Virus record (IMG/VR): IMGVR_UViG_2872678658_000002
Direction: 5' to 3' (one strand)
DNA from: a virus
Taxonomy: Duplodnaviria; Heunggongvirae; Uroviricota; Caudoviricetes
DNA: 45,439 nt
The notes below the pieces were generated by a model. It ran no database searches and was not told where the DNA came from. It saw nothing but the letters and a program-made list of their open reading frames with translations. Shown here piece by piece: positions 1 to 44,406 of this stretch. The translations under genes and the position numbers were made by a program. Numbering within the stretch: the stretch's first letter is position 1; the number at the start of each line of letters is the position of its first letter.

Positions 1-780
1 ATGAATTTTACGTTTACTGACTCTGGATACACTGAAACAAATAAAAACAATCCCCCAATCATATTCGTTCATGGATTTTTCATGAATAATGAAATGTTCA
101 AATACCAGTTTGACGAACTAAAAGAAAAACATAGAGTTGTTTGCATTAATGTTCGGGGATTCGATGCTCTCTCCGAAAAAATTGAGCCATTCTCGCTCTA
201 TGACATCGTTGATGACATTTTAAACGTCGCAGACTCACTACAACTGGATAAGTTTATTTTAGGTGGAATGTCGATGGGCGGATATATATCATTACGATTT
301 GCCCTGTCACATTCAGAACGTTTGTCAGGGCTAATCCTTATGGCAACTCAGGCAGAGCAGGATCCGCCAGAAATCGCGTCCAGTTACATGGAGTTATGTA
401 ATGGATGGCAAGACCCAATCATAAAGGAAAATATAATCAACTCATTATTACCCGTTTTTTTCGGAAATGATATCTCTGAAGCAGAGACATGGAGACAGGT
501 ATGGCTAGGCCATAAACCTGAAAATATCATAAAGGCCATGAATGCAATGCTGGAGCGCGACGACATTTCAGAAAGAATCCAGATAATCACAATCCCCACG
601 CTGATTATTCATGGTGCCAACGATATGGGGATACCATTAGAGAAAGCAATTCAAATGCACAAAATGATTGCGCATTCTAAGCTTGAAGTCATTCCCGACG
701 CAAATCATGCTCTAAATATCACTCATGCAAAGGAAGTAAATACAGCGATAAAAAACTGGCTGCAAAACAATCATATATAA
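1..780 (+). CDS. alpha/beta-hydrolase fold protein (putative esterase/lipase), AT-rich cargo gene
   Basis: 259-aa ORF with HGFF oxyanion-like motif, GxSxG-type nucleophile motif (GMSMGG), downstream Asp (HGANDMG) and His (DANHAL); low-GC codon usage unlike neighbouring phage genes. Confidence 0.6.
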   Translation: MNFTFTDSGYTETNKNNPPIIFVHGFFMNNEMFKYQFDELKEKHRVVCINVRGFDALSEKIEPFSLYDIVDDILNVADSLQLDKFILGGMSMGGYISLRFALSHSERLSGLILMATQAEQDPPEIASSYMELCNGWQDPIIKENIINSLLPVFFGNDISEAETWRQVWLGHKPENIIKAMNAMLERDDISERIQIITIPTLIIHGANDMGIPLEKAIQMHKMIAHSKLEVIPDANHALNITHAKEVNTAIKNWLQNNHI

Positions 781-818
781 AATTAATTATAACACATATT
801 AATTTCTTAATTATATTA

Positions 819-841
819 CGCCCGTAAAACTGTAGCGGGCG
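819..841. terminator. hairpin between convergent genes (cgcccg-11 nt loop-cgggcg)
   Basis: 6-bp inverted repeat seen directly between hydrolase stop (780) and minus-strand gene stop (982); no clean U-tract. Confidence 0.3.
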
Positions 842-981
842 TATGTTGTCACTCTGGTAGTGCCAGCCTCTCAATATCAGGTGCAGTTGATGTATCAACA
901 CGGTTCAGCAACACCCGATACTTTTTCCAGGCTTCCAGCAACGGGGTTTCTTCCTCCGTTGCATATACAGCTCACCTTTTT

Positions 982-1275
982 TCACCCACGATTAACCAAC
1001 AGCCAGACCAGCAGACACGCCACCACCGGCACAGCAAAATCCATCAGGCTTGCCACATCCCAAGCACGCGGATCAAAACCGCCCCACCACGGCATATTCA
1101 TTCGCTTGCCATGCCCGAACATTTCAATCCAGCGATATTCTGCCTGGGTATGTTCACGCGCAATGAAGAACGTACAACCGGCTATCGCTCCGTAAGCCCA
1201 GTTTCCGGTAAAAAGACCAACCAGTATCTGCGCAGCCACAGCACAAAGTGCATGAAGTAAGGGGCTTATATCCAT
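982..1275 (-). CDS. hypothetical small membrane protein (tail-fiber-distal cargo)
   Basis: 97-aa ORF with two hydrophobic segments, start 12 nt after upstream gene stop, same strand as tail genes. Confidence 0.45.
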   Translation of the reverse strand: MDISPLLHALCAVAAQILVGLFTGNWAYGAIAGCTFFIAREHTQAEYRWIEMFGHGKRMNMPWWGGFDPRAWDVASLMDFAVPVVACLLVWLLVNRG

Positions 1276-1287
1276 TATTTCCTCCTT

Positions 1288-1566
1288 TCAGCTCCATTCC
1301 CGAAGCGGTGTTTCCAGCTCCACGACATAATCAGAGAATACAGAAACATCAAACAAGTCATCAAGAATGCGAATGTTGACAAAATAACCATCATTCCGGA
1401 TACAGACAGGTTCTCCCTCTTCTGTTACCCCTGTTTCTGTGTAGGTGAAACCAATTTCATCAACTAACAGTTTATTCTGGAGGTCTTCATCTTCCGCCCA
1501 GCCAAGAGATGACAGGAAGGCCTTAAACTGCAGTTTGTCATGAAACTTCAAAGTTAAATCTTTCAT
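1288..1566 (-). CDS. small acidic protein translationally coupled to side tail fiber (possible fiber chaperone/accessory)
   Basis: 92-aa ORF; ATGA start/stop overlap with the stf stop codon at 1563-1566; D/E-rich. Confidence 0.45.
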   Translation of the reverse strand: MKDLTLKFHDKLQFKAFLSSLGWAEDEDLQNKLLVDEIGFTYTETGVTEEGEPVCIRNDGYFVNIRILDDLFDVSVFSDYVVELETPLREWS

Positions 1567-3632
1567 ACGACCTCTTTTAATTGCCTGTCATTTAATTCTT
1601 TATGCCATATGCGGAAATTGCGAATATGGCCAAACAGATGTCGTTCTCCAGTATTCGTCTGCCCTCCAAATCGGATATTTTTATCAGCGGTCACGCCATT
1701 ATATTCACAATAAACTTCATTAACCGCTTTACCATTTGTCACCACATGAAAGTGACCATCAGCTTTTGCAATACATCCAAATGTGGTTTTCTCTGCAAAT
1801 ACATCTGTCGCTGCGCTATTAACATACGAGCCTGAAGGGTTTGACAGACTCATATATAACTTACCACTACCTCTGTTGACTGCTGCAATTGCTGATTGCC
1901 CGGTATTGGCTGCTGCTATATCCCACACGCGGGGTGCGGCGTTTGGTGCAATATCCCAGTTTTTATGAATCTCAAGTAAAAAAGTAAATGGTAACTTATA
2001 AAGATTATTTCTGGTGGGGATACTAACCAAATCACTGGCTCTTGTCGTTGCGCTGCCTCCTGAAATAATAAATGATGATACACACGGCCCATTCTCTACT
2101 TGTGGGGTGGCAAGATAAATATAGTCACCAGATACTGTTGCCCCACCCTTCTCAGGAGAATACTGTATCTGAGAGCCTATTTTTAACTCACCATCAATTG
2201 CCTGAATCGTTGCCTCTGCAAAAATCCAGCCCGTGGTCTTATCCTTCCTGACTCGTGCCGTAATTCTGCCGGCAGCACCACCTGTCATATTAATTTCAAG
2301 CGTTTGCGTATCAATGTACGCATCGCCAAGAAAAGTTGTTGCACTTCCGTCATATTTATCAAACCGGATTCGCAACCTTACCTGCAGTTCTGTTTTAAAG
2401 CGACATGAGGTTGTCACGTATTTATTATCGCCTGAGACATCAACTGACTTTGTTGCAGCAATTGATGCCATATTAATAGCCGAAGTTTGCCCAACCAGAG
2501 AATCGTTGCAGACAAACTTTCCATAAGTAAAACCAAAACTATCCGTCCCGGTTTCGGGCACATCCATGTTTGATGACTTCCCCCAGCTGGCTGGACTTTC
2601 CGAATTGAGCATGTAGTTCGTTCTTTGTCCCTCAATAAGCAGGCCATCACACTCAAATCGCGGCTCATTAATTTCCGCCGTTTTCAGTTCGCCAGATTTG
2701 TTGATATATGTTGCCGTTGATGCGCGACTGAAATTAACCTGTTTATCACTGGCGACCTGAACCACATCGTCACCAATAGCTATTTTTTTATAGCCCGGAG
2801 AAAAACCCGCAATCATATCCAGTGAATCGTTAAACGGTATCCACACATCAGGCAGCGGCGGCACTATATTCGCATAGGGCTCTGCAGTCACTTCCGCTGC
2901 GGCTTCTGCGCGGTCTGCCGCCTTTTCAGCTCGTGTCGCTGCCGACAGAGCCTCATCCTTTTTCTGCCCGGCCTTTGTTGCGTCTGCTGCAGCCTCCCGC
3001 GCTTTTGTGGTGGCGACTCCGGCATTTTCAGCGGCTGACTCTGCATTACGGCGGGAAGCCTCTTCACTGTCTGCGGAGGCTTCTTCTGACGCACGGGCAT
3101 TTGTCTCTGAACGTTCTGCCGCTGTTGCTGCGTTTTGTGCGGCTGTTTTTGAAGAAGCTGCCGCTTTCGCGCTGTTACCTGCATTCGTCTCTGATGTTTT
3201 CGCCGCGTTCCTGGACGATGCCGCTGCTGTTTCTGATTTCTTTGCTGCCGCTGCGCTCTGAGAGGCGGCTTCAGCGTTGCGTGCCACATCCTCCACCATT
3301 TCCTGAAAACGGCGCAATGCCTCCGGCATGACATCATCTTCCGTCATGGCACCGAGAAAATCATTCAGCGTCCCCGGACTGGAACCTTCATAGACGGTAA
3401 TGGTCCCAACATGTGATGGCTGAGAACCCTCAATCCACAGGATGACGCTGTACTGACCATACTCAACGTCCATACTGTAACGCCCGGCTTCATCAGGATT
3501 TTCAGAGGCCACCGTGTTCACCAGTACCGTGGTGCTGTTACGCTTTGCCTTCAGTTGAATAGTGCAGTTCTGTATTGGTTTTCCCGCACCATCTTTCAGC
3601 ACACCTGAGATTTTTACTGCTGCCATATCCAC
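1563..3632 (-). CDS. stf: side tail fiber protein (lambda Stf-like N-terminus, divergent C-terminal receptor-binding region)
   Basis: 689 aa; N-terminus MAAVKISGVLKDGAGKPIQNCTIQLKAKRNSTT... matches remembered lambda Stf; Ala/Ser-rich repetitive stalk. Confidence 0.85.
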   Translation of the reverse strand: MDMAAVKISGVLKDGAGKPIQNCTIQLKAKRNSTTVLVNTVASENPDEAGRYSMDVEYGQYSVILWIEGSQPSHVGTITVYEGSSPGTLNDFLGAMTEDDVMPEALRRFQEMVEDVARNAEAASQSAAAAKKSETAAASSRNAAKTSETNAGNSAKAAASSKTAAQNAATAAERSETNARASEEASADSEEASRRNAESAAENAGVATTKAREAAADATKAGQKKDEALSAATRAEKAADRAEAAAEVTAEPYANIVPPLPDVWIPFNDSLDMIAGFSPGYKKIAIGDDVVQVASDKQVNFSRASTATYINKSGELKTAEINEPRFECDGLLIEGQRTNYMLNSESPASWGKSSNMDVPETGTDSFGFTYGKFVCNDSLVGQTSAINMASIAATKSVDVSGDNKYVTTSCRFKTELQVRLRIRFDKYDGSATTFLGDAYIDTQTLEINMTGGAAGRITARVRKDKTTGWIFAEATIQAIDGELKIGSQIQYSPEKGGATVSGDYIYLATPQVENGPCVSSFIISGGSATTRASDLVSIPTRNNLYKLPFTFLLEIHKNWDIAPNAAPRVWDIAAANTGQSAIAAVNRGSGKLYMSLSNPSGSYVNSAATDVFAEKTTFGCIAKADGHFHVVTNGKAVNEVYCEYNGVTADKNIRFGGQTNTGERHLFGHIRNFRIWHKELNDRQLKEVV

Positions 3633-3690: not shown

Positions 3691-4290
3691 TCAGAATTTA
3701 TAACCGACACCAACGATGAAACCGTCAGTGCGCCAGTCGCCACTGCCGGAACCTTCATAAGCAATATCAATGGCCACGGATTCGGTCGGGTTAAACTGCA
3801 CGCCAGCCCCCCACGCCAGAGACGTGTCGCTGTAGCGACCGTCATCACTTCCGGTCAGCACATCGTCCGTTTTCCCCTTGTTATCAGTTACGCGGAGATA
3901 ATCCCCGGAGAAAGTCGACACACGGCTGTAAGCCACGCCCGCCATCGCATACGTGCTGAACCATTCATTCACGCGTACAGACGGCCCCGCCATCATGCTG
4001 AACCAGCGGTTACGCACGGAATCTTCATGCCAGCGGGTATCGCTGTAGTGCGTTTTTTGCTCATCCTCAGCATTGGCATAACTGAAGGACGTAATCAGCC
4101 CCAGCGCGTCCGTAAACTCATAACGGTATTTCACGTTAATCCCGTTCAGATTATCGCTGCCGGGAGCGTTCGTACGGGCATGAAGATACCCCGCGCTCAG
4201 TGTGGACTGATGTTCAGACGCCCATGCAGGCGCACCGGATACGGACAGACAGATGGCTGCGGACAAAATGGCTGCACATAATTTACGCAT
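3691..4290 (-). CDS. lom: Lom outer-membrane protein (Ail/Lom family)
   Basis: 199 aa, signal peptide, C-terminal ...GVGYKF beta-barrel terminus; position between J and stf as in lambda. Confidence 0.85.
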   Translation of the reverse strand: MRKLCAAILSAAICLSVSGAPAWASEHQSTLSAGYLHARTNAPGSDNLNGINVKYRYEFTDALGLITSFSYANAEDEQKTHYSDTRWHEDSVRNRWFSMMAGPSVRVNEWFSTYAMAGVAYSRVSTFSGDYLRVTDNKGKTDDVLTGSDDGRYSDTSLAWGAGVQFNPTESVAIDIAYEGSGSGDWRTDGFIVGVGYKF

Positions 4291-26028: not shown

Positions 26029-26502
26029 TTATTTCAGGCATTGCGTCCTGATGTATTCCTGCAGGTAGTTAACCTGCGCGGTTATCTTGTCGATTCCACT
26101 TCGGAGACGGTAATAATTGAGTTCAGCATCTGCTGTAAGTCTTGGGCTTTCTCCATCGCCCATGCTGCTGGCTCCGGTCGTTGACTTTGCACAGGTGGCG
26201 GCGACTTGCAGGCGCTTACGACCAGCAGAAACATCAGCACGGAGACTTTCGATAGTCGCATTAGCATCAGCAAGCTCCTTTGTGTATCTGGCGTCGAGTT
26301 CTGCTACATCACGTTGACGCTTCCGCATGTCAGCGATGGTGGCGTTCGCCTTCTCCAGTTCACTGGCCTTGTTATCGCGCTGCTCTTTGTAGGCGATTGC
26401 GTTATCACGGTAATGATTAACAGCCCATGACAGGCAGACGATGATGCAGATAACCAGAGCATAAATAATCGCGGCGACTCTGCTCACTGATCTATCCCCC
26501 AA
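26029..26502 (-). CDS. Rz: spanin inner-membrane subunit Rz
   Basis: 157 aa, N-terminal TM then coiled coil, lambda/21 Rz-like. Confidence 0.85.
26082..26273 (-). CDS. Rz1: spanin outer-membrane lipoprotein Rz1 (embedded in Rz, +1 frame)
   Basis: 63-aa ORF wholly inside Rz; lipobox (VVSAC) and Pro-rich stretch. Confidence 0.75.
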
Positions 26503-27017
26503 CAGGCTAATGCGCTTTCCTGGTCACGACGAATAACCTGTCCATAGCAGTTATTTGAACGTATGCGGCAATCGCGCCCACCATCTTTTATCCACCAGCG
26601 AATCGCCTCGCATGCACCTTTACGATCACCGGCATTCAGCCGCTTATAAAACGTCGACGGGAAACACTTACCGGGGCCAATGTTATAGGGACAAAATGAC
26701 GCGATACCCGCTTTCTGTGGTTCGGTCAGTGGCACTTTAATATTGCGCTCCACCCATGCCAGCGCCTTATCCCGTTCAATGGCGTTAACCTGGTCGCATT
26801 TTTCCTTCGACAGTTTCATACCGGGAAAAACGGGTTTTCCATCCACCACCGTGGCACCCCGACAGATGGTCCAGATGCCGGAACCATCGCGGTATGCCGT
26901 TGTGTGGTTACCTTCTTTTTCATCCAGAAACTGGTCGAGAATATCAGGCGCAGGCGCACCGACGGCAATCAGTGCCAGAACGGCAGCCGACAGGCCGTAT
27001 CTGATTTTTGCGTTCAT
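26484..27017 (-). CDS. R: lysozyme (T4/P22-type, probable signal-anchor-release endolysin)
   Basis: 177 aa; N-terminal hydrophobic segment; E...D...T catalytic spacing in [16 protein letters not shown]. Confidence 0.8.
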
Positions 27018-28047: not shown

Positions 28048-28725
28048 ATGTCCATCATTTTTAATGGACACTATCGTATGAAACACCGGACCTGGATCAC
28101 TGAAGCTTTACGTCTTCACTTTGAAGAACATTTACCCCGGGTTGTGGCCGGGCGTCGCCTGGGTGTACCAAAATCAACAGTTTGTAGTATGTTCGTGCGC
28201 TTTCGGAGAGCTGGCCTTTCGTGGCCTTTGCCCGCAGGCATGTCGGAGCAGGAACTTGATGCCTGCCTTTACGGACAATTTTCCACGGTACCAGTCGTAC
28301 GTCCTGAAAGCACCGTTATATCCGAAGCCCCCGTGGTAAAAAAACGTCCCCGGCGGCCCAACTTCCCTTATGAGTTTAAAATCGCCTTAGTGGAGCAGTC
28401 ACTGCAGCCCGGAGCCTGTGTGGCGCAGATCGCCCGGGAAAACGGAATCAACGATAACCTGCTCTTCAACTGGCGCCATCAATACCGGAAAGGTGGCCTG
28501 CTGCCTTCCGGAAAAAATATGCCGGCACTGCTTCCCGTGACGTTAACGCCGGAGCCGGATAATAAAATCCCGGCCCCCGCACAGGAACCAGAGCAGATAA
28601 ATACACCGTCCGACAGTCTGTGTTGTGAGCTGGTTCTGCCGGCCGGAACTCTCAGGCTTAAAGGTAAACTGACGCCGGCGTTATTACAGACACTTATCCG
28701 CGAAATAAAAGGGAGCAGCCACTGA
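28048..28725 (+). CDS. tnpA: IS66-family accessory protein TnpA (HTH)
   Basis: 225-aa ORF, HTH-like segments; first of three IS66-type ORFs. Confidence 0.7.
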   Translation: MSIIFNGHYRMKHRTWITEALRLHFEEHLPRVVAGRRLGVPKSTVCSMFVRFRRAGLSWPLPAGMSEQELDACLYGQFSTVPVVRPESTVISEAPVVKKRPRRPNFPYEFKIALVEQSLQPGACVAQIARENGINDNLLFNWRHQYRKGGLLPSGKNMPALLPVTLTPEPDNKIPAPAQEPEQINTPSDSLCCELVLPAGTLRLKGKLTPALLQTLIREIKGSSH

Positions 28726-29072
28726 TGATATCTCTCCCTGCAGGTTCGCGTATCTGGCTGGTTGCAGGTATCACCGATATGCGAAATGGCTTTAACGGCC
28801 TGGCATCAAAAGTTCAGAACGTCCTGAAGGATGACCCGTTCTCCGGACACCTGTTCATCTTCCGCGGACGCCGGGGTGACCAGATAAAAGTGTTGTGGGC
28901 TGACAGTGACGGACTGTGCCTCTTCACCAAACGCCTGGAGCGGGGCCGCTTCGTCTGGCCAGTCACCCGTGACGGCAAGGTGCACCTTACTCCGGCTCAG
29001 TTATCCATGCTTCTTGAAGGTATCAACTGGAAGCACCCGAAACGAACGGAACGCGCTGGAATCCGCATATAA
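28725..29072 (+). CDS. tnpB: IS66-family protein TnpB (orfB)
   Basis: 115 aa, typical IS66 orfB size and sequence, start overlapping tnpA stop. Confidence 0.85.
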   Translation: MISLPAGSRIWLVAGITDMRNGFNGLASKVQNVLKDDPFSGHLFIFRGRRGDQIKVLWADSDGLCLFTKRLERGRFVWPVTRDGKVHLTPAQLSMLLEGINWKHPKRTERAGIRI

Positions 29073-29091
29073 CCCGTTGTAAAGTGAGGAT

Positions 29092-30663
29092 ATGGACACC
29101 TCACTTGCTCATGAGAACGCCCGCCTGCGGGCACTGTTGCAGACGCAACAGGACACCATCCGCCAGATGGCTGAATACAACCGCCTGCTCTCACAGCGGG
29201 TGGCGGCTTATGCTTCCGAAATCAACCGGCTGAAGGCGCTGGTTGCGAAACTGCAACGTATGCAGTTCGGTAAAAGCTCAGAAAAACTTCGTGCAAAAAC
29301 CGAACGGCAGATACAGGAAGCACAGGAGCGAATCAGCGCACTTCAGGAAGAAATGGCGGAAACGCTGGGTGAGCAATATGACCCGGTACTGCCATCCGCC
29401 CTGCGCCAGTCTTCAGCCCGTAAACCGTTACCGGCCTCACTTCCCCGTGAAACCCGGGTTATCCGGCCGGAAGAGGAATGCTGTCCTGCCTGTGGTGGTG
29501 AACTCAGTTCTCTGGGATGTGATGTGTCAGAGCAACTGGAGCTTATCAGCAGCGCCTTTAAGGTTATCGAAACACAACGTCCGAAACAGGCCTGTTGCCG
29601 GTGCGACCATATCGTGCAGGCACCAGTACCTTCAAAACCCATTGCACGCAGTTATGCCGGAGCGGGGCTTCTGGCCCATGTTGTCACCGGGAAATATGCA
29701 GACCATCTGCCGTTATACCGCCAGTCAGAAATATACCGTCGTCAGGGAGTGGAGATGAGCCGCGCCACGCTGGGGCGCTGGACCAGTGCTGTTGCTGAAC
29801 TGCTGGAGCCGCTGTATGACGTCCTGCGCCAGTATGTGCTGATGCCCGGTAAAGTCCATGCTGATGATATCCCCGTCCCGGTCCAGGAGCCGGGCAGCGG
29901 TAAAACCCGGACAGCCCGGCTGTGGGTCTACGTCCGTGATGACCGTAACGCCGGTTCACAGATGCCCCCGGCGGTCTGGTTCGCGTACAGTCCGGACCGG
30001 AAGGGTATCCATCCTCAAAATCACCTGGCCGGTTACAGCGGTGTGCTTCAGGCCGATGCTTACGGTGGTTACCGGGCGTTATACGAATCCGGCAGAATAA
30101 CGGAAGCCGCGTGTATGGCTCATGCCCGGAGAAAAATCCACGATGTGCATGCAAGAGCGCCCACCTACATCACCACGGAAGCCCTGCAGCGTATCGGTGA
30201 ACTGTATGCCATCGAGGCAGAGGTCCGGGGCTGTTCAGCAGAACAGCGTCTGGCGGCAAGAAAAGCCAGAGCCGCGCCACTGATGCAGTCACTGTATGAC
30301 TGGATACAGCAACAGATGAAAACACTGTCGCGTCACTCAGATACGGCAAAAGCGTTCGCATACCTGCTGAAACAGTGGGATGCACTGAACGTGTACTGCA
30401 GTAATGGCTGGGTGGAAATCGACAACAACATCGCAGAGAACGCCTTACGGGGAGTGGCCGTAGGCCGGAAAAACTGGATGTTCGCGGGTTCCGACAGCGG
30501 TGGTGAACATGCGGCGGTGTTGTACTCGCTGATCGGCACATGCCGTCTGAACAATGTGGAGCCAGAAAAGTGGCTGCGTTACGTCATTGAACATATCCAG
30601 GACTGGCCGGCAAACCGGGTACGCGATCTGTTGCCCTGGAAAGTTGATCTGAGCTCTCAGTAA
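29092..30663 (+). CDS. tnpC: IS66-family transposase TnpC
   Basis: 523 aa, N-terminal coiled coil/leucine zipper, Cys-rich zinc ribbon, DDE-like core. Confidence 0.85.
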
Positions 30664-35040: not shown

Positions 35041-35727
35041 TCACTCCTTCTCTTCTTTTCCGTAGTGGAGTTGGCCAATTTTGATAAGAGGGCGTCCCTG
35101 AGATTTGCGGTGTAGATTGGTATCGCGCAGAGAATACACACAGCCACAATATTCCTGCTGATAGAATTTTTCGCGCTTGCTGATTTCAATCATACGGGAC
35201 GAGCCGCCCTGCTTGCGCCAGTTATAATCCCAGTACACCATACCCGGATAATGCGCAACAGCTCGCCGCCCACACTCGTTAACCTGCTGCATATTTTTCC
35301 AGCGTGAAATGCCCAGTGAACTGCTGATCACACTGAAACCATTTTCAGCAGCGTACAACGCTGTCCGCTCAAAACGCATGTCAAAACACATGGTACAACG
35401 GATCCCCCTCTCAGGCTCCCATTCCATTCCTTTGGCACGTTCAAACCAGTTGTCGGTGTCGTAATCAGCATCGATAAACGGCACGCCGTGTTGTTCAGCA
35501 AAGCGAATATTTTCATCCTTACGAATTAAATACTCTTTCTGAGGATGAATGTTCGGGTTGTAGAAAAAGATGGTGTAGTCGATTCCCGAGGCCTGAAGCG
35601 CCTCCATCACTTCACCGGAACATGGAGCACAGCAAGAGTGCAGTAGTAGTTTGTTTGCCCCGTTTGGGAGCTCCAATTTAGGCCGTTTGAAATCAGCAAT
35701 AGTCATAAATATTTTTATTGGGGTCAT
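35041..35727 (-). CDS. DUF208/QueH-like protein (putative epoxyqueuosine reductase, Fe-S)
   Basis: 228 aa with [11 protein letters not shown] motif plus CTMCF and YCGC cysteines characteristic of QueH family. Confidence 0.65.
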
Positions 35728-43177: not shown

Positions 43178-43381
43178 ATGAGCAGCTTATTTTTAACCGA
43201 AGATGAATTGCTAATATTAACGGGCTGCAAATATGCAAGCCACCAGCGAAAATGGTTAATGGAAAACGGGCTTCCGTTCTATACCAATCGTAGTGGCAAA
43301 CCGATTGTCAGCCGGGATCTATTTACCTGCAATAAAACTTTACCACCACGCGAGGTAGAGCCGAATTTTGGTGCGATCTGA
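43178..43381 (+). CDS. xis: putative excisionase
   Basis: 67-aa ORF whose stop overlaps the integrase start (TGATG). Confidence 0.5.
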   Translation: MSSLFLTEDELLILTGCKYASHQRKWLMENGLPFYTNRSGKPIVSRDLFTCNKTLPPREVEPNFGAI

Positions 43382-44406
43382 TGGGAAGACGAAGGAAAAA
43401 TCCTGAACACGAAAAATTACCTCCAAATGTATACCCAAATAAATATAGTTATGTATGGAAACCAACATCCAGAGAATCTGTAACACTAACCGCCATCAAG
43501 GATGGTTTAGCTGCTTTATGGAAAAAGTATGAGGAAACTGTAAATAATCGCGATCGTGCAATGACATTCGGTCGCTTGTGGGAAAAATTCCTCGCCAGCG
43601 CCTATTACAGTGACCTCAGTCCAAGAACACAAAAAGATTATCTGCAACATCAAAAAAAGTTGCTTGCCGTATTCGGTAAGGTGCCGGCAGATTCCATAAA
43701 ACCAGAACACATCCGTCGATACATGGACAAGAGAGGGGAACAGAGTAAAACGCAAGCCAACCATGAAAAAAGCAGTATGTCCCGCGTTTACAGTTGGGGG
43801 TATGAGCGAGGGTACGTGAAAGCTAACCCATGTGCAGGTGTAAGTAAATTCAAGGCCAAAAACCGCGAACGATATGTAACCGACAAAGAATACCAGGCAG
43901 TATTAAGCGTTGCACCTCTTCCTGTTTTTATCGCAATGGAAATTGCCTATCTGTGTGCAGCGAGGGTTTCCGATGTGTTATCGCTGAAATGGGAGCAGAT
44001 TGGAAACGACGGGATCTTTATCCAGCAAGGGAAAACAGGAAAAAAACAGATAAAAGCATGGAGTCCACGATTACAGGCGGCGATCGAAAAAGCAAAACAG
44101 TTACCAACATCCGCCTATGTAATCAGCAATCAATACGGCAACCGATATATGTACAAAGGCTTTAACGAAATGTGGGTAGATGCAAGAAATCGTGCTGGAA
44201 AAATTTCAGGTATTTTAACCGACTTCACCTTTCATGATCTGAAGGCGAAAGGAATTTCAGACTATGAAGGAAGCAGCCGGGATAAGCAACTTTTCTCTGG
44301 TCACAAAACCGAAGGGCAAGTGCTAATCTATGACAGGAAGGTTAAAGTTTCACCAACACTTGATGTCCCGTTACCTGAAAATATTCCAAGAAAATATTCC
44401 AAGTAA
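43381..44406 (+). CDS. int: tyrosine integrase
   Basis: 341 aa; C-terminal catalytic region (R...HDLK...VLIYDRK with Tyr); adjacent to tRNA 3-prime end. Confidence 0.85.
   Translation: MGRRRKNPEHEKLPPNVYPNKYSYVWKPTSRESVTLTAIKDGLAALWKKYEETVNNRDRAMTFGRLWEKFLASAYYSDLSPRTQKDYLQHQKKLLAVFGKVPADSIKPEHIRRYMDKRGEQSKTQANHEKSSMSRVYSWGYERGYVKANPCAGVSKFKAKNRERYVTDKEYQAVLSVAPLPVFIAMEIAYLCAARVSDVLSLKWEQIGNDGIFIQQGKTGKKQIKAWSPRLQAAIEKAKQLPTSAYVISNQYGNRYMYKGFNEMWVDARNRAGKISGILTDFTFHDLKAKGISDYEGSSRDKQLFSGHKTEGQVLIYDRKVKVSPTLDVPLPENIPRKYSK

Follow-up and report, generated by a model that had tools for sequence, protein, structure and literature searches.

The locus described here raises the question of what has taken the place of the tail fibre assembly gene tfa in a lambda-like prophage, and whether the genes found there belong together. 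It lies at one end of a 45,439-nucleotide (nt) stretch of viral DNA (Caudoviricetes; IMG/VR record IMGVR_UViG_2872678658_000002), which is referred to at its full length as the window. Positions 1-3632 are the distal end of the late (tail) operon together with one independent moron, and the remainder of the window is a lambda-like prophage. The genes in question are stf, whose product (the side tail fibre, Stf) ends in a receptor-binding module designated StfC; a gene for an acidic protein of 92 amino acids (aa), designated P92; a gene for a 97-aa membrane protein, designated P97; and a convergent gene for an alpha/beta-fold hydrolase, with a remnant of tfa in between, as shown in Table 1. A preliminary description made from the sequence had treated P92, P97 and the hydrolase as the cargo of a single moron hotspot, among which a fibre chaperone and host-interaction or exclusion genes might be found. 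The analysis revealed that this one-cargo view fails, while its ideas of a fibre accessory and of a hydrolase moron hold. The explanation that we favour, with a probability of roughly 55%, is that a fibre cassette was swapped in, in which P92 would be an accessory or chaperone of the StfC tip and P97 a separate envelope module, and that the hydrolase is a moron of its own.

The gene structure was read from the map of open reading frames (ORFs) and from the raw sequence, and the tail genes are all on the minus strand. The TGA stop of stf shares bases with the ATG of P92 in an ATGA overlap (context GAGGTCGTATGAAAG / GTCGTATGAAAG), and the TGA of P92 is followed by a spacer of exactly 12 nt, AAGGAGGAAATA, with a strong Shine-Dalgarno sequence, before the ATG of P97. 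P92 has a pI of 4.17, with 20 Asp and Glu residues and eight Lys and Arg residues. The ATGA overlap, the 12-nt gap, the 97-aa membrane ORF, the hairpin and the convergent AT-rich hydrolase were thus all found where the preliminary description had placed them. Its further statement that the lambda tfa is absent is true of an intact tfa, though the last 37 codons of that gene survive. The GC content changes in steps along the locus, from 55.1% in the N-terminal part of stf (StfN) to 43.3% in StfC, 42% in P92, 52.7% in P97, 51% in the tfa remnant and 38.7% in the hydrolase gene, with a value of 51.8% for the window.

The borders of the replaced segment were located by comparison with other prophages. 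Positions 1-962, which hold the hydrolase gene, the hairpin and the 3′ end of tfa, have counterparts of 97.3% identity in other prophages, adjoining a complete tfa and a stfR of 1117 aa, and a comparison that included the translations of the tfa remnant revealed that the homology to these full-tfa prophages breaks exactly at position 962. On the other side, positions 866/906-1700 were found in many other genomes with different downstream DNA. The whole of positions 1-1700 is carried by only 9 of the 5426 complete E. coli genomes; it is 100% identical in the avian-pathogenic E. coli strains IMT5155, DE17 and BEN5202 and 99.6% identical in APEC O1. Position 962, at the tfa remnant, is the right-hand recombination joint of a swapped cassette. 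The exchange would have been homologous, between the conserved 5′ region of stf and the final ~110 nt of tfa, which are conserved as well, and would have replaced a lambda-type fibre tip and its tfa by StfC, P92 and P97 of the phage 21 type. Such a swap is the simplest reading of the breakpoints and of the GC steps that fall at the same borders.

The incoming segment is not new at the level of sequence, as it already occurs in phage 21 and in many sequenced phages, where it is always annotated as hypothetical. In phage 21 (OL657228) the genes CPT_21_22, CPT_21_23 and CPT_21_24, annotated as side tail fiber, hypothetical protein and putative membrane protein, form the same trio of stf, P92 and P97 in the same order and with the same spacing. 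Over the P92-P97 segment the DNA of phage 21 and that of the window are 98.6% identical, and the P97 proteins are 100% identical; the products of the trio are uncharacterised in phage 21, as here. The two loci part after the cassette, where phage 21 continues with the sitABCD iron/manganese transporter moron, whereas the window has the tfa remnant and the esterase moron. A related prophage at icd in E. coli FHI_NMBU_03 (L002:2983-5388) carries, after the hydrolase gene, a second tfa fragment, a frameshifted appY and an ompT fragment, pieces that resemble the neighbourhood of the DLP12 region carried along as prophage cargo. Another locus (L142) likewise has an AppY-like ORF after P97.

The fibre tip brought in by the cassette appears to be lectin-like. 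Stf begins with the standard prophage tail-fibre anchor (phage_tail_N, 6e-64), and its residues 332-532 match NCBIfam GTA_spike_fiber (3e-14), with a weak match to Laminin_G_3 (1e-05; 26.2 bits, under the cut-off of 27.6). The StfC module spans from PFPDVW… to …GHIRNFRIWH and was matched by BLAST to six other cassettes. Its identity to the lateral fibre tips is 57% for KarlJaspers, 51% for IrisVonRoten and 71% for HannyBb, and no catalytic domain was detected in StfC by Pfam and NCBIfam scans. In RcGTA, capsular polysaccharide is bound by the head-spike fibre, a lectin-like beta protein (PMC10218006), and the lateral fibres of T5-like phages bind the O-antigen as primary receptor, as has also been proposed for T1-like phages; IrisVonRoten infects K-12 with restored O16 (PMC8594841). 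Because StfC contains the GTA-spike-fibre domain and the lateral fibres of KarlJaspers and IrisVonRoten end in the StfC module, it is reasonable to suppose by analogy that StfC most likely binds a surface glycan, for instance O-antigen or capsule, as its primary receptor. Side (lateral) tail fibres are the structures that first touch the O-antigen or the capsule, and they are also the parts that are most often swapped in host-range engineering.

The association of P92 with StfC is strict. The cassette, recognized as a ~420-aa module of phrog_1419 followed by an overlapping acidic protein of ~90-100 aa from phrog_1361, is present in the window, and a StfC-module fibre was found upstream of P92 for every homolog examined. 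The hosts of the pair include lambda-like and P1-like elements, the T1-like KarlJaspers, the T5-like IrisVonRoten and prophages of Comamonas, Pantoea and Chelativorans. A total of 167 P92 instances was compiled as fetched loci, not de-duplicated and many of them on overlapping contigs; in more than 95% of these the start of P92 overlaps the stop of the fibre gene by 4 or 1 nt, and in almost all of them the next gene begins 9-12 nt after P92. One P1-like element encodes two StfC proteins in succession, of 700 and 437 aa, and a separate P92 follows each of them. Fibres that carry Peptidase_S74, an intramolecular chaperone domain, were never found with a P92 behind them. In addition, the divergence of P92 follows that of StfC (r = 0.58, compared with r = 0.20 for P97), with the mean identity of P92 climbing from 36% to 97% across the bins of StfC identity. 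Both small genes are under purifying selection, with a median dN/dS of 0.33 for P92 and 0.20 for P97. The StfC-P92 arrangement is not due to chance, and since P92 also occurs in virulent T1-like and T5-like phages, it is part of the lytic and structural programme, which sets it apart from the moron cargo as which it had been listed. The idea that the 92-aa protein is a fibre accessory gains from this strict synteny, and the sequence comparisons indicate that P92 most probably serves the StfC tip as a dedicated accessory.

Searches of the family collections gave P92 no name. No Pfam, NCBIfam or PADLOC family was matched (none in PADLOC at E ≤ 0.1), and the PHROGs search returned two function-unknown PHROGs each for P92 and P97 and nothing else, with P92 belonging to phrog_1361. 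Homologs of P92 formed 47 clusters in the first search, 80 in a profile search of 1.8 billion representatives and 357 in a profile search of the 5.8-billion set. All 357 are annotated as 'hypothetical', measure 85-125 aa and share the consensus MKDLxLKF…DxIG…GYxVNxR…DD…P.TP.RVWA. The profile also matched large proteins with PKD repeats and TPR motifs (P0185, P0191, P0207 and P0232), and these were set aside as compositional matches of repeat strands. Several metagenome calls in ENA give a 194-aa P92-P97 'fusion' protein; these are probably artefacts of gene calling, as the TGA of P92 and the 12-nt spacer (1276-1290) are in frame with P97, so that reading the TGA as sense would join the two. 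A different order was observed in an alphaproteobacterial prophage of Chelativorans sp. (L205:2526-4590), in which a StfC-like protein is followed by P97, with a 4-nt overlap, and by a longer P92-like ORF.

As a small gene immediately 3′ of the fibre gene and co-translated with it, P92 resembles the second member of the known fibre-chaperone pairs (Stf-Tfa of lambda, S-U of Mu, H-G of P2 and gp37-gp38/gp57A of T4), and like these it diverges together with the C-terminal receptor-binding part of its fibre. The Tfa-type position, directly 3′ of a fibre gene and co-expressed with it, is the one that P92 occupies. However, P92 is half the size of Tfa and has no similarity to it in sequence, profile or fold; alignment of the P92 family with a three-member Tfa profile by hhalign gave a probability of 1.1%, so that membership of the known Tfa family, which would have spoken against the preliminary description, was not found. 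Its partner is also of another kind, being a lectin-like tip (GTA-spike-fibre with a weak LamG-like match), unlike the tip types of lambda, Mu and T4. The closest comparison is offered by the BASEL phages KarlJaspers (Bas06) and IrisVonRoten (Bas32), whose P92 homologs are ~50% identical and begin with the same overlap as here. Their loci continue with an S74-type distal fibre or a 'putative chaperone' and no P97, whereas the window has P97 and no distal fibre, and the Stf anchor of this prophage is lambda-type, unlike their lateral fibres. Since fibre genes are, as a general rule, followed by their chaperones, we rank a folding or assembly chaperone that replaces Tfa first among the roles of P92, and by analogy with these pairs we give it an even chance. 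Through the ATGA overlap the synthesis of P92 would keep pace with that of Stf; P92 would act on or with StfC and might also remain at the tip, the place at which other phages attach a second fibre of S74 type. If it is true that P92 is an obligatory partner of StfC, any transplant of StfC must carry P92 along, and P92 would then represent a class of chaperones or adaptors that is unrelated to Tfa and specific to the lectin-tipped fibres of lambda-like, T1-like, T5-like and P1-like phages.

Several points weigh against the explanation given above and were considered together with its alternatives. No known chaperone is significantly similar in fold to P92, for which only uncharacterised phage proteins of 64-121 aa were matched in BFVD; StfC is its predicted partner, binding between the two being proposed from synteny; and the correlation of r = 0.58 could reflect simple linkage. 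A short fibre of S74 type also follows P92 in about one third of the loci. In HannyBb, L142, L012, KarlJaspers and IrisVonRoten this fibre has 225-574 aa and begins 9-12 nt after P92; Peptidase_S74 was found where it was tested (HannyBb and L012), and the others are similar by BLAST or by motif. These distal fibres share the N-terminal peptide M-x-T-x-T-x-IP-x-DI-x-x-LK, which is probably a common docking element, while their bodies differ, and this fits an adaptor at least as well as a chaperone. P92 could accordingly be a structural adaptor by which another, distal fibre is attached to the StfC tip, and the fibre would then be branched as established for LtfA/LtfB in the T5-like phage DT57C (PMC10713586), with the distal gene having been lost from the window. 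We regard this as rather unlikely, as ~115 of the 167 instances have no distal fibre and P92 is nevertheless intact and kept under purifying selection in them, with the same dN/dS of 0.33. Moreover, the last StfC of the P1-like element has a P92 with nothing to dock, and the fibre proteins listed for DT57C are only LtfA and LtfB, encoded by the adjacent genes gp108 and gp107 (PMC10713586). Another possibility is that StfC and P92 form a pair of the enzyme-inhibitor or toxin-immunity kind, in which P92 would be a 'cap' that masks an activity or a binding site of the tip inside the producing cell. Such a role would suit a small acidic protein whose translation is coupled to that of a variable C-terminal domain, and transient chaperone 'caps' have been proposed for the fibres of Alteromonas phages (PMC10579305). 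However, StfC contains no detectable catalytic domain, and the Alteromonas caps, compared with P92 by description only, resemble intramolecular chaperone domains (PMC10579305); the papers on these caps and on Tai tail-assembly interference, likewise considered by their descriptions only, gave no link to P92 or P97, and we consider this last reading very improbable. It may be added that the distal short fibre of KarlJaspers is annotated as 'putative lateral tail fiber chaperone', and that HannyBb (L004:5031-5621) has a DNA invertase gene shortly after P97, along with a small reverse-strand ORF, which hints at an invertible fibre segment.

The membrane protein P97 has a different history from that of its neighbour. 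Its AlphaFold model (pLDDT 93.6) has three helices at residues 3-22, 25-51 and 73-95, of which helix 1, the first half of helix 2 and helix 3 are hydrophobic. The family comprises 577 clusters with the invariant motif RExTQAEYRWI…G.G.R.NMPWWGGFD, and there is no variation, or almost none, at H8, R40, E41, Q44-W49, G54, G56, R58, M61-W64, D68, W72, D79 and P83. This conservation extends over E. coli, Comamonas, Sphingomonas, Devosia and Desulfovibrio, that is, over the alpha-, beta-, gamma- and delta-proteobacteria. No match was found in Pfam, NCBIfam or PADLOC, and a sequence search of the Protein Data Bank (PDB) with the P97 profile found nothing. P97 belongs to phrog_1443 (function unknown), the sole name attached to it is 'Ybl63', and no relevant literature was found on 'Ybl63', on phage 21 stf or on an exclusion gene at this position. 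A lipoprotein was considered and rejected, as the IAG-C33 of the enterobacterial members, which resembles a lipobox, has A, S or other residues in place of Cys33 outside the gamma-proteobacteria, and the reading of a signal peptide was dropped as well, with the near-invariant H8 and other conserved polar residues lying inside the supposed peptide. A holin was likewise discarded, given that no holin PHROG was matched, the lysozyme gene is 25 kb away, the C-terminus is just NRG and not a charged tail, and the P1-like element has a separate LydA holin beside P97.

P97 was found directly 3′ of the last receptor-binding gene in phages and prophages of enterobacteria, Comamonas, Pantoea and Chelativorans, whatever that gene is. 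It stands behind StfC-P92 in the window, in phage 21 and in many lambda-like phages; behind S74 fibres in HannyBb and L142; and behind P22-like tailspikes, overlapping the stop in JEP4 and following an O-acetylase in 611R6. In a Salmonella myovirus it is flanked by two tailspike genes, in Comamonas it follows gpJ, and in the P1-like element it comes after the last fibre and upstream of the LydA holin gene. The identity of P97 is 91-100% behind StfC or S74 fibres of lambda-like phages and 77-84% behind P22-like tailspikes. The fibre loci of KarlJaspers and IrisVonRoten, which have StfC-P92, lack P97, and the matches listed for it included no T5-like record and no full-length T1-like copy. As the StfC-P92 loci of these virulent phages do without P97, the fibre does not need it. 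Chromosomal copies were also found. A syntenic homolog lies just downstream of pirin in several species of Aeromonas (L006, L186, L188 and L192). In L006, the locus with displayed annotation, its surroundings contain no phage genes. This synteny suggests a cellular function for the family. Other chromosomal loci, mostly of Sphingomonadales and other Alphaproteobacteria, have P97 beside ligA, cyclophilin or PNPase.

P97 also differs from a moron in the usual sense. A promoter and a terminator of its own, independent of the late operon, were not found; no promoter-like site was seen on its strand at positions 982-1700, where promoter scans performed no better than on shuffled sequence and were not used. 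The gene follows its neighbour by 12 nt here and by 9 nt or with an overlap elsewhere. On the other hand, the block of homology with HannyBb begins 11 nt upstream of the ATG of P97, which marks P97 as a discrete module. The preliminary description is thus to be amended on this point, in that P97 lacks the transcription signals of a moron, yet appears from these comparisons to be a separately acquired module of cellular origin that would be translated from the tail-gene transcript. The strong intrinsic terminators after J and lom indicate that stf, P92 and P97 lie behind terminators, within the tail-gene operon. P97 would probably sit in the inner membrane and exert its effect on the cell envelope, during infection or in the lysogen.

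What this envelope role might be was weighed between several readings. P97 could be a host-derived, housekeeping-type membrane protein (an enzyme or a small transporter subunit) that serves as a fitness or auxiliary gene and owes its position to the recombination-prone 3′ ends of receptor-binding genes. The at least 20 positions that are invariant or nearly so across four proteobacterial classes, the chromosomal copies in many species, a GC content that differs from that of the neighbours and the start of the HannyBb block so close to the ATG are all in line with this. We hold it tentatively, with the odds against it, because P97 has been placed independently, and often translationally coupled, behind the receptor-binding genes of four phage morphotypes, for which chance is a poor explanation as other prophage hot spots exist. 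This placement in lambda-like, P22-like, P1-like and some other temperate phages, together with its absence from most of the virulent T1-like and T5-like phages that have the same fibre cassette, would instead suit a protein of superinfection exclusion or anti-readsorption. Made together with the receptor-binding genes or close to them, such a protein would keep related phages out or save progeny from loss on debris. An envelope protein encoded beside a receptor-binding gene is a familiar arrangement in exclusion, as in cor and llp. Cor (phi80, N15 and T1), Llp (T5) and gp15 (HK97) resemble P97 as small envelope proteins encoded beside receptor-binding or tail genes; Cor and Llp are lipoproteins of the outer membrane, each suited to a single receptor, and gp15 of HK97 is a small inner-membrane exclusion protein. 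P97, however, is polytopic and helical, has no conserved lipobox, and changes very little from one kind of receptor-binding protein to another, so that it does not co-vary with receptor specificity. It has no PADLOC match, its syntenic homologs in the chromosomes of Aeromonas and Sphingomonadales have no phage genes nearby, and it lies behind two terminators without a promoter of its own. The exclusion function that the preliminary description had envisaged therefore finds no specific support here, and we consider it unlikely.

A more speculative view goes further. P97 would be an ancient, undescribed membrane family whose catalytic or ligand-binding loop (RExTQAEYRWI…NMPWWGGFD) remodels or shuts down the display of the surface glycan receptor, or of its lipid-linked precursor, in the infected cell, while P92 would belong to a new class of fibre chaperones or adaptors. 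Such an activity would provide a generic, receptor-independent way of avoiding re-adsorption or superinfection and would have been captured repeatedly by at least four phage architectures, which would express it along with glycan-binding receptor proteins; we regard it as quite improbable. Among the points that count against the favoured explanation are also that the conserved loop of P97 could face either side of the membrane, that P97 may be expressed in lysogens, about which promoter scans at chance level say nothing, and that P97, StfC and P92 co-occur in prophages of beta- and alpha-proteobacteria, which could mean a functional tie to the fibre. Such a tie is ranked below both the host-derived envelope function and exclusion. 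For the hydrolase, the promoter lies beyond the window. Returning to the separate envelope module as the favoured reading of P97, its strongly conserved family is common to proteobacterial chromosomes and phages and stands beside receptor-binding genes, and its function could reveal a new envelope process that phages exploit.

The hydrolase is a mobile, AT-rich moron and not a core gene, as the preliminary description had supposed in listing it as cargo. It was found in only 30 of the 5426 complete E. coli genomes, at 83-100% identity, which disposes of a conserved core host gene, and it converges on the end of the tail-fibre operon in all five other loci examined. The prophages concerned are both lambdoid (with Lom and Stf) and P2/Mu-like myoviruses (with baseplate J or late control protein D), and are integrated at icd, prfC, ompW and dusA. 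A GC content of 38.7% against the 51.8% of the window, the patchy presence and a hairpin terminator are the features expected of a moron. The hairpin has an 8-bp stem (TACGCCCG/CGGGCGTA; z = −2.3 against shuffles) and is also kept in the full-tfa locus, where it lies 3′ of tfa; a simple terminator scan did not flag it because of its 11-nt loop. It is likely a terminator shared by the late operon and the hydrolase gene, on which the tail operon and the esterase moron would both end. Upstream of the hydrolase, outside the window, promoter-like sites in IMT5155 were no more frequent than in shuffled sequence. A tiny 'ferredoxin' ORF was also observed ~330 bp upstream of the hydrolase gene in three of the six loci examined.

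By its sequence the hydrolase is predicted to be a cytoplasmic serine esterase. It matches Abhydrolase_1 of Pfam with 97.8 bits (cut-off 25.8) and phrog_789, esterase/lipase, with 1.7e-29, and its closest solved relative is the 'esterase' PDB 4UHH/4UHC (1.5e-32). The GGMSMGG of the hydrolase aligns with GGLSMGG of 4UHH, and its DANH with DAGH, which gives the GxSxG nucleophile elbow and the His; the Asp of the triad (HGANDMG) was assigned by alignment position only. All NCBIfam equivalogs for named enzymes (BioH, PcaD, RutD, MenH and macrolide esterases) scored far below their cut-offs, for example 103.7 against 255.9 for PcaD and 87.5 against 207 for BioH, and PADLOC gave no match at E ≤ 0.1. 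Compared with the morons lom and bor of lambda, fun(Z) of P2 and sitABCD of phage 21, the predicted product is a cytoplasmic-type serine esterase and not an envelope or exclusion protein. It represents a recurrent but rare prophage cargo in avian-pathogenic E. coli of sequence type ST95 (APEC O1 and IMT5155).

Table 1. Positions of the features discussed. Coordinates are those of the window, except for the distal short fibres, which are given by locus.
Feature	Position	Strand	Remarks
Stf, side tail fibre, 689 aa	1563..3632	-	ORF map; lambda-type N-terminal anchor (aa 5-134), Ala-rich shaft, StfC tip
StfC, C-terminal ~420-aa receptor-binding module of Stf	aa 266-689, nt 1563-2837	-	phrog_1419
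P92, 92-aa acidic protein coupled to stf	1288..1566	-	ATGA overlap
P97, 97-aa three-helix membrane protein, UniRef name 'Ybl63'	982..1275	-	phrog_1443; 12 nt past P92
tfa remnant, last 37 codons and stop	849..962	-	RefSeq tail fiber assembly protein pseudogene; ~97% identity to full-tfa prophages
8-bp GC-rich hairpin between two convergent units	817..843	.	dG -13.1 kcal/mol, z -2.26
Alpha/beta-fold hydrolase, carboxylesterase-like serine hydrolase (predicted), 259 aa	1..780	+	Abhydrolase_1 1e-27; phrog_789
Strong intrinsic terminators	4339-4320 (after J), 3664-3643 (after lom)	-	8-bp GC stems, then T-runs
Lom	3691-4290		J, then tail and head genes beyond
Lysozyme gene	26484-27017		
IS66-family insertion	28048-30663		TnpA-like helix-turn-helix (HTH), TnpB, DDE transposase; complete
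Integrase	43381-44406		adjoins mtfA
Distal short fibres after P92 in other loci	L004:3436-4467 (HannyBb), L142:4304-4987, L248:3770-4447, L249:4789-6513		shared MxTxTxIPxDIxxLK

Some further observations concern the rest of the prophage and its surroundings. The two terminators listed in Table 1 flank lom and cut it off from both J and stf. The IS66-family element sits just upstream of the lysis region and may have inactivated the expression of the late genes. In the early region, positions 35041-35727 encode a homolog of the QueH-type epoxyqueuosine reductase (Pfam QueH, 1e-65), which is an unusual phage gene and may relate to queuosine or 7-deazaguanine metabolism. In E. coli IMT5155, ~9 kb of accessory DNA lies directly to the left of window position 1, beyond the hydrolase gene. 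This stretch contains the tiny 'ferredoxin' ORF, DUF6387, an HTH regulator, an H-NS paralog, DUF4756, RepL and a remnant of ISEc40, as well as a SMODS nucleotidyltransferase and a SLATT membrane protein, which together make up a CBASS-like pair.

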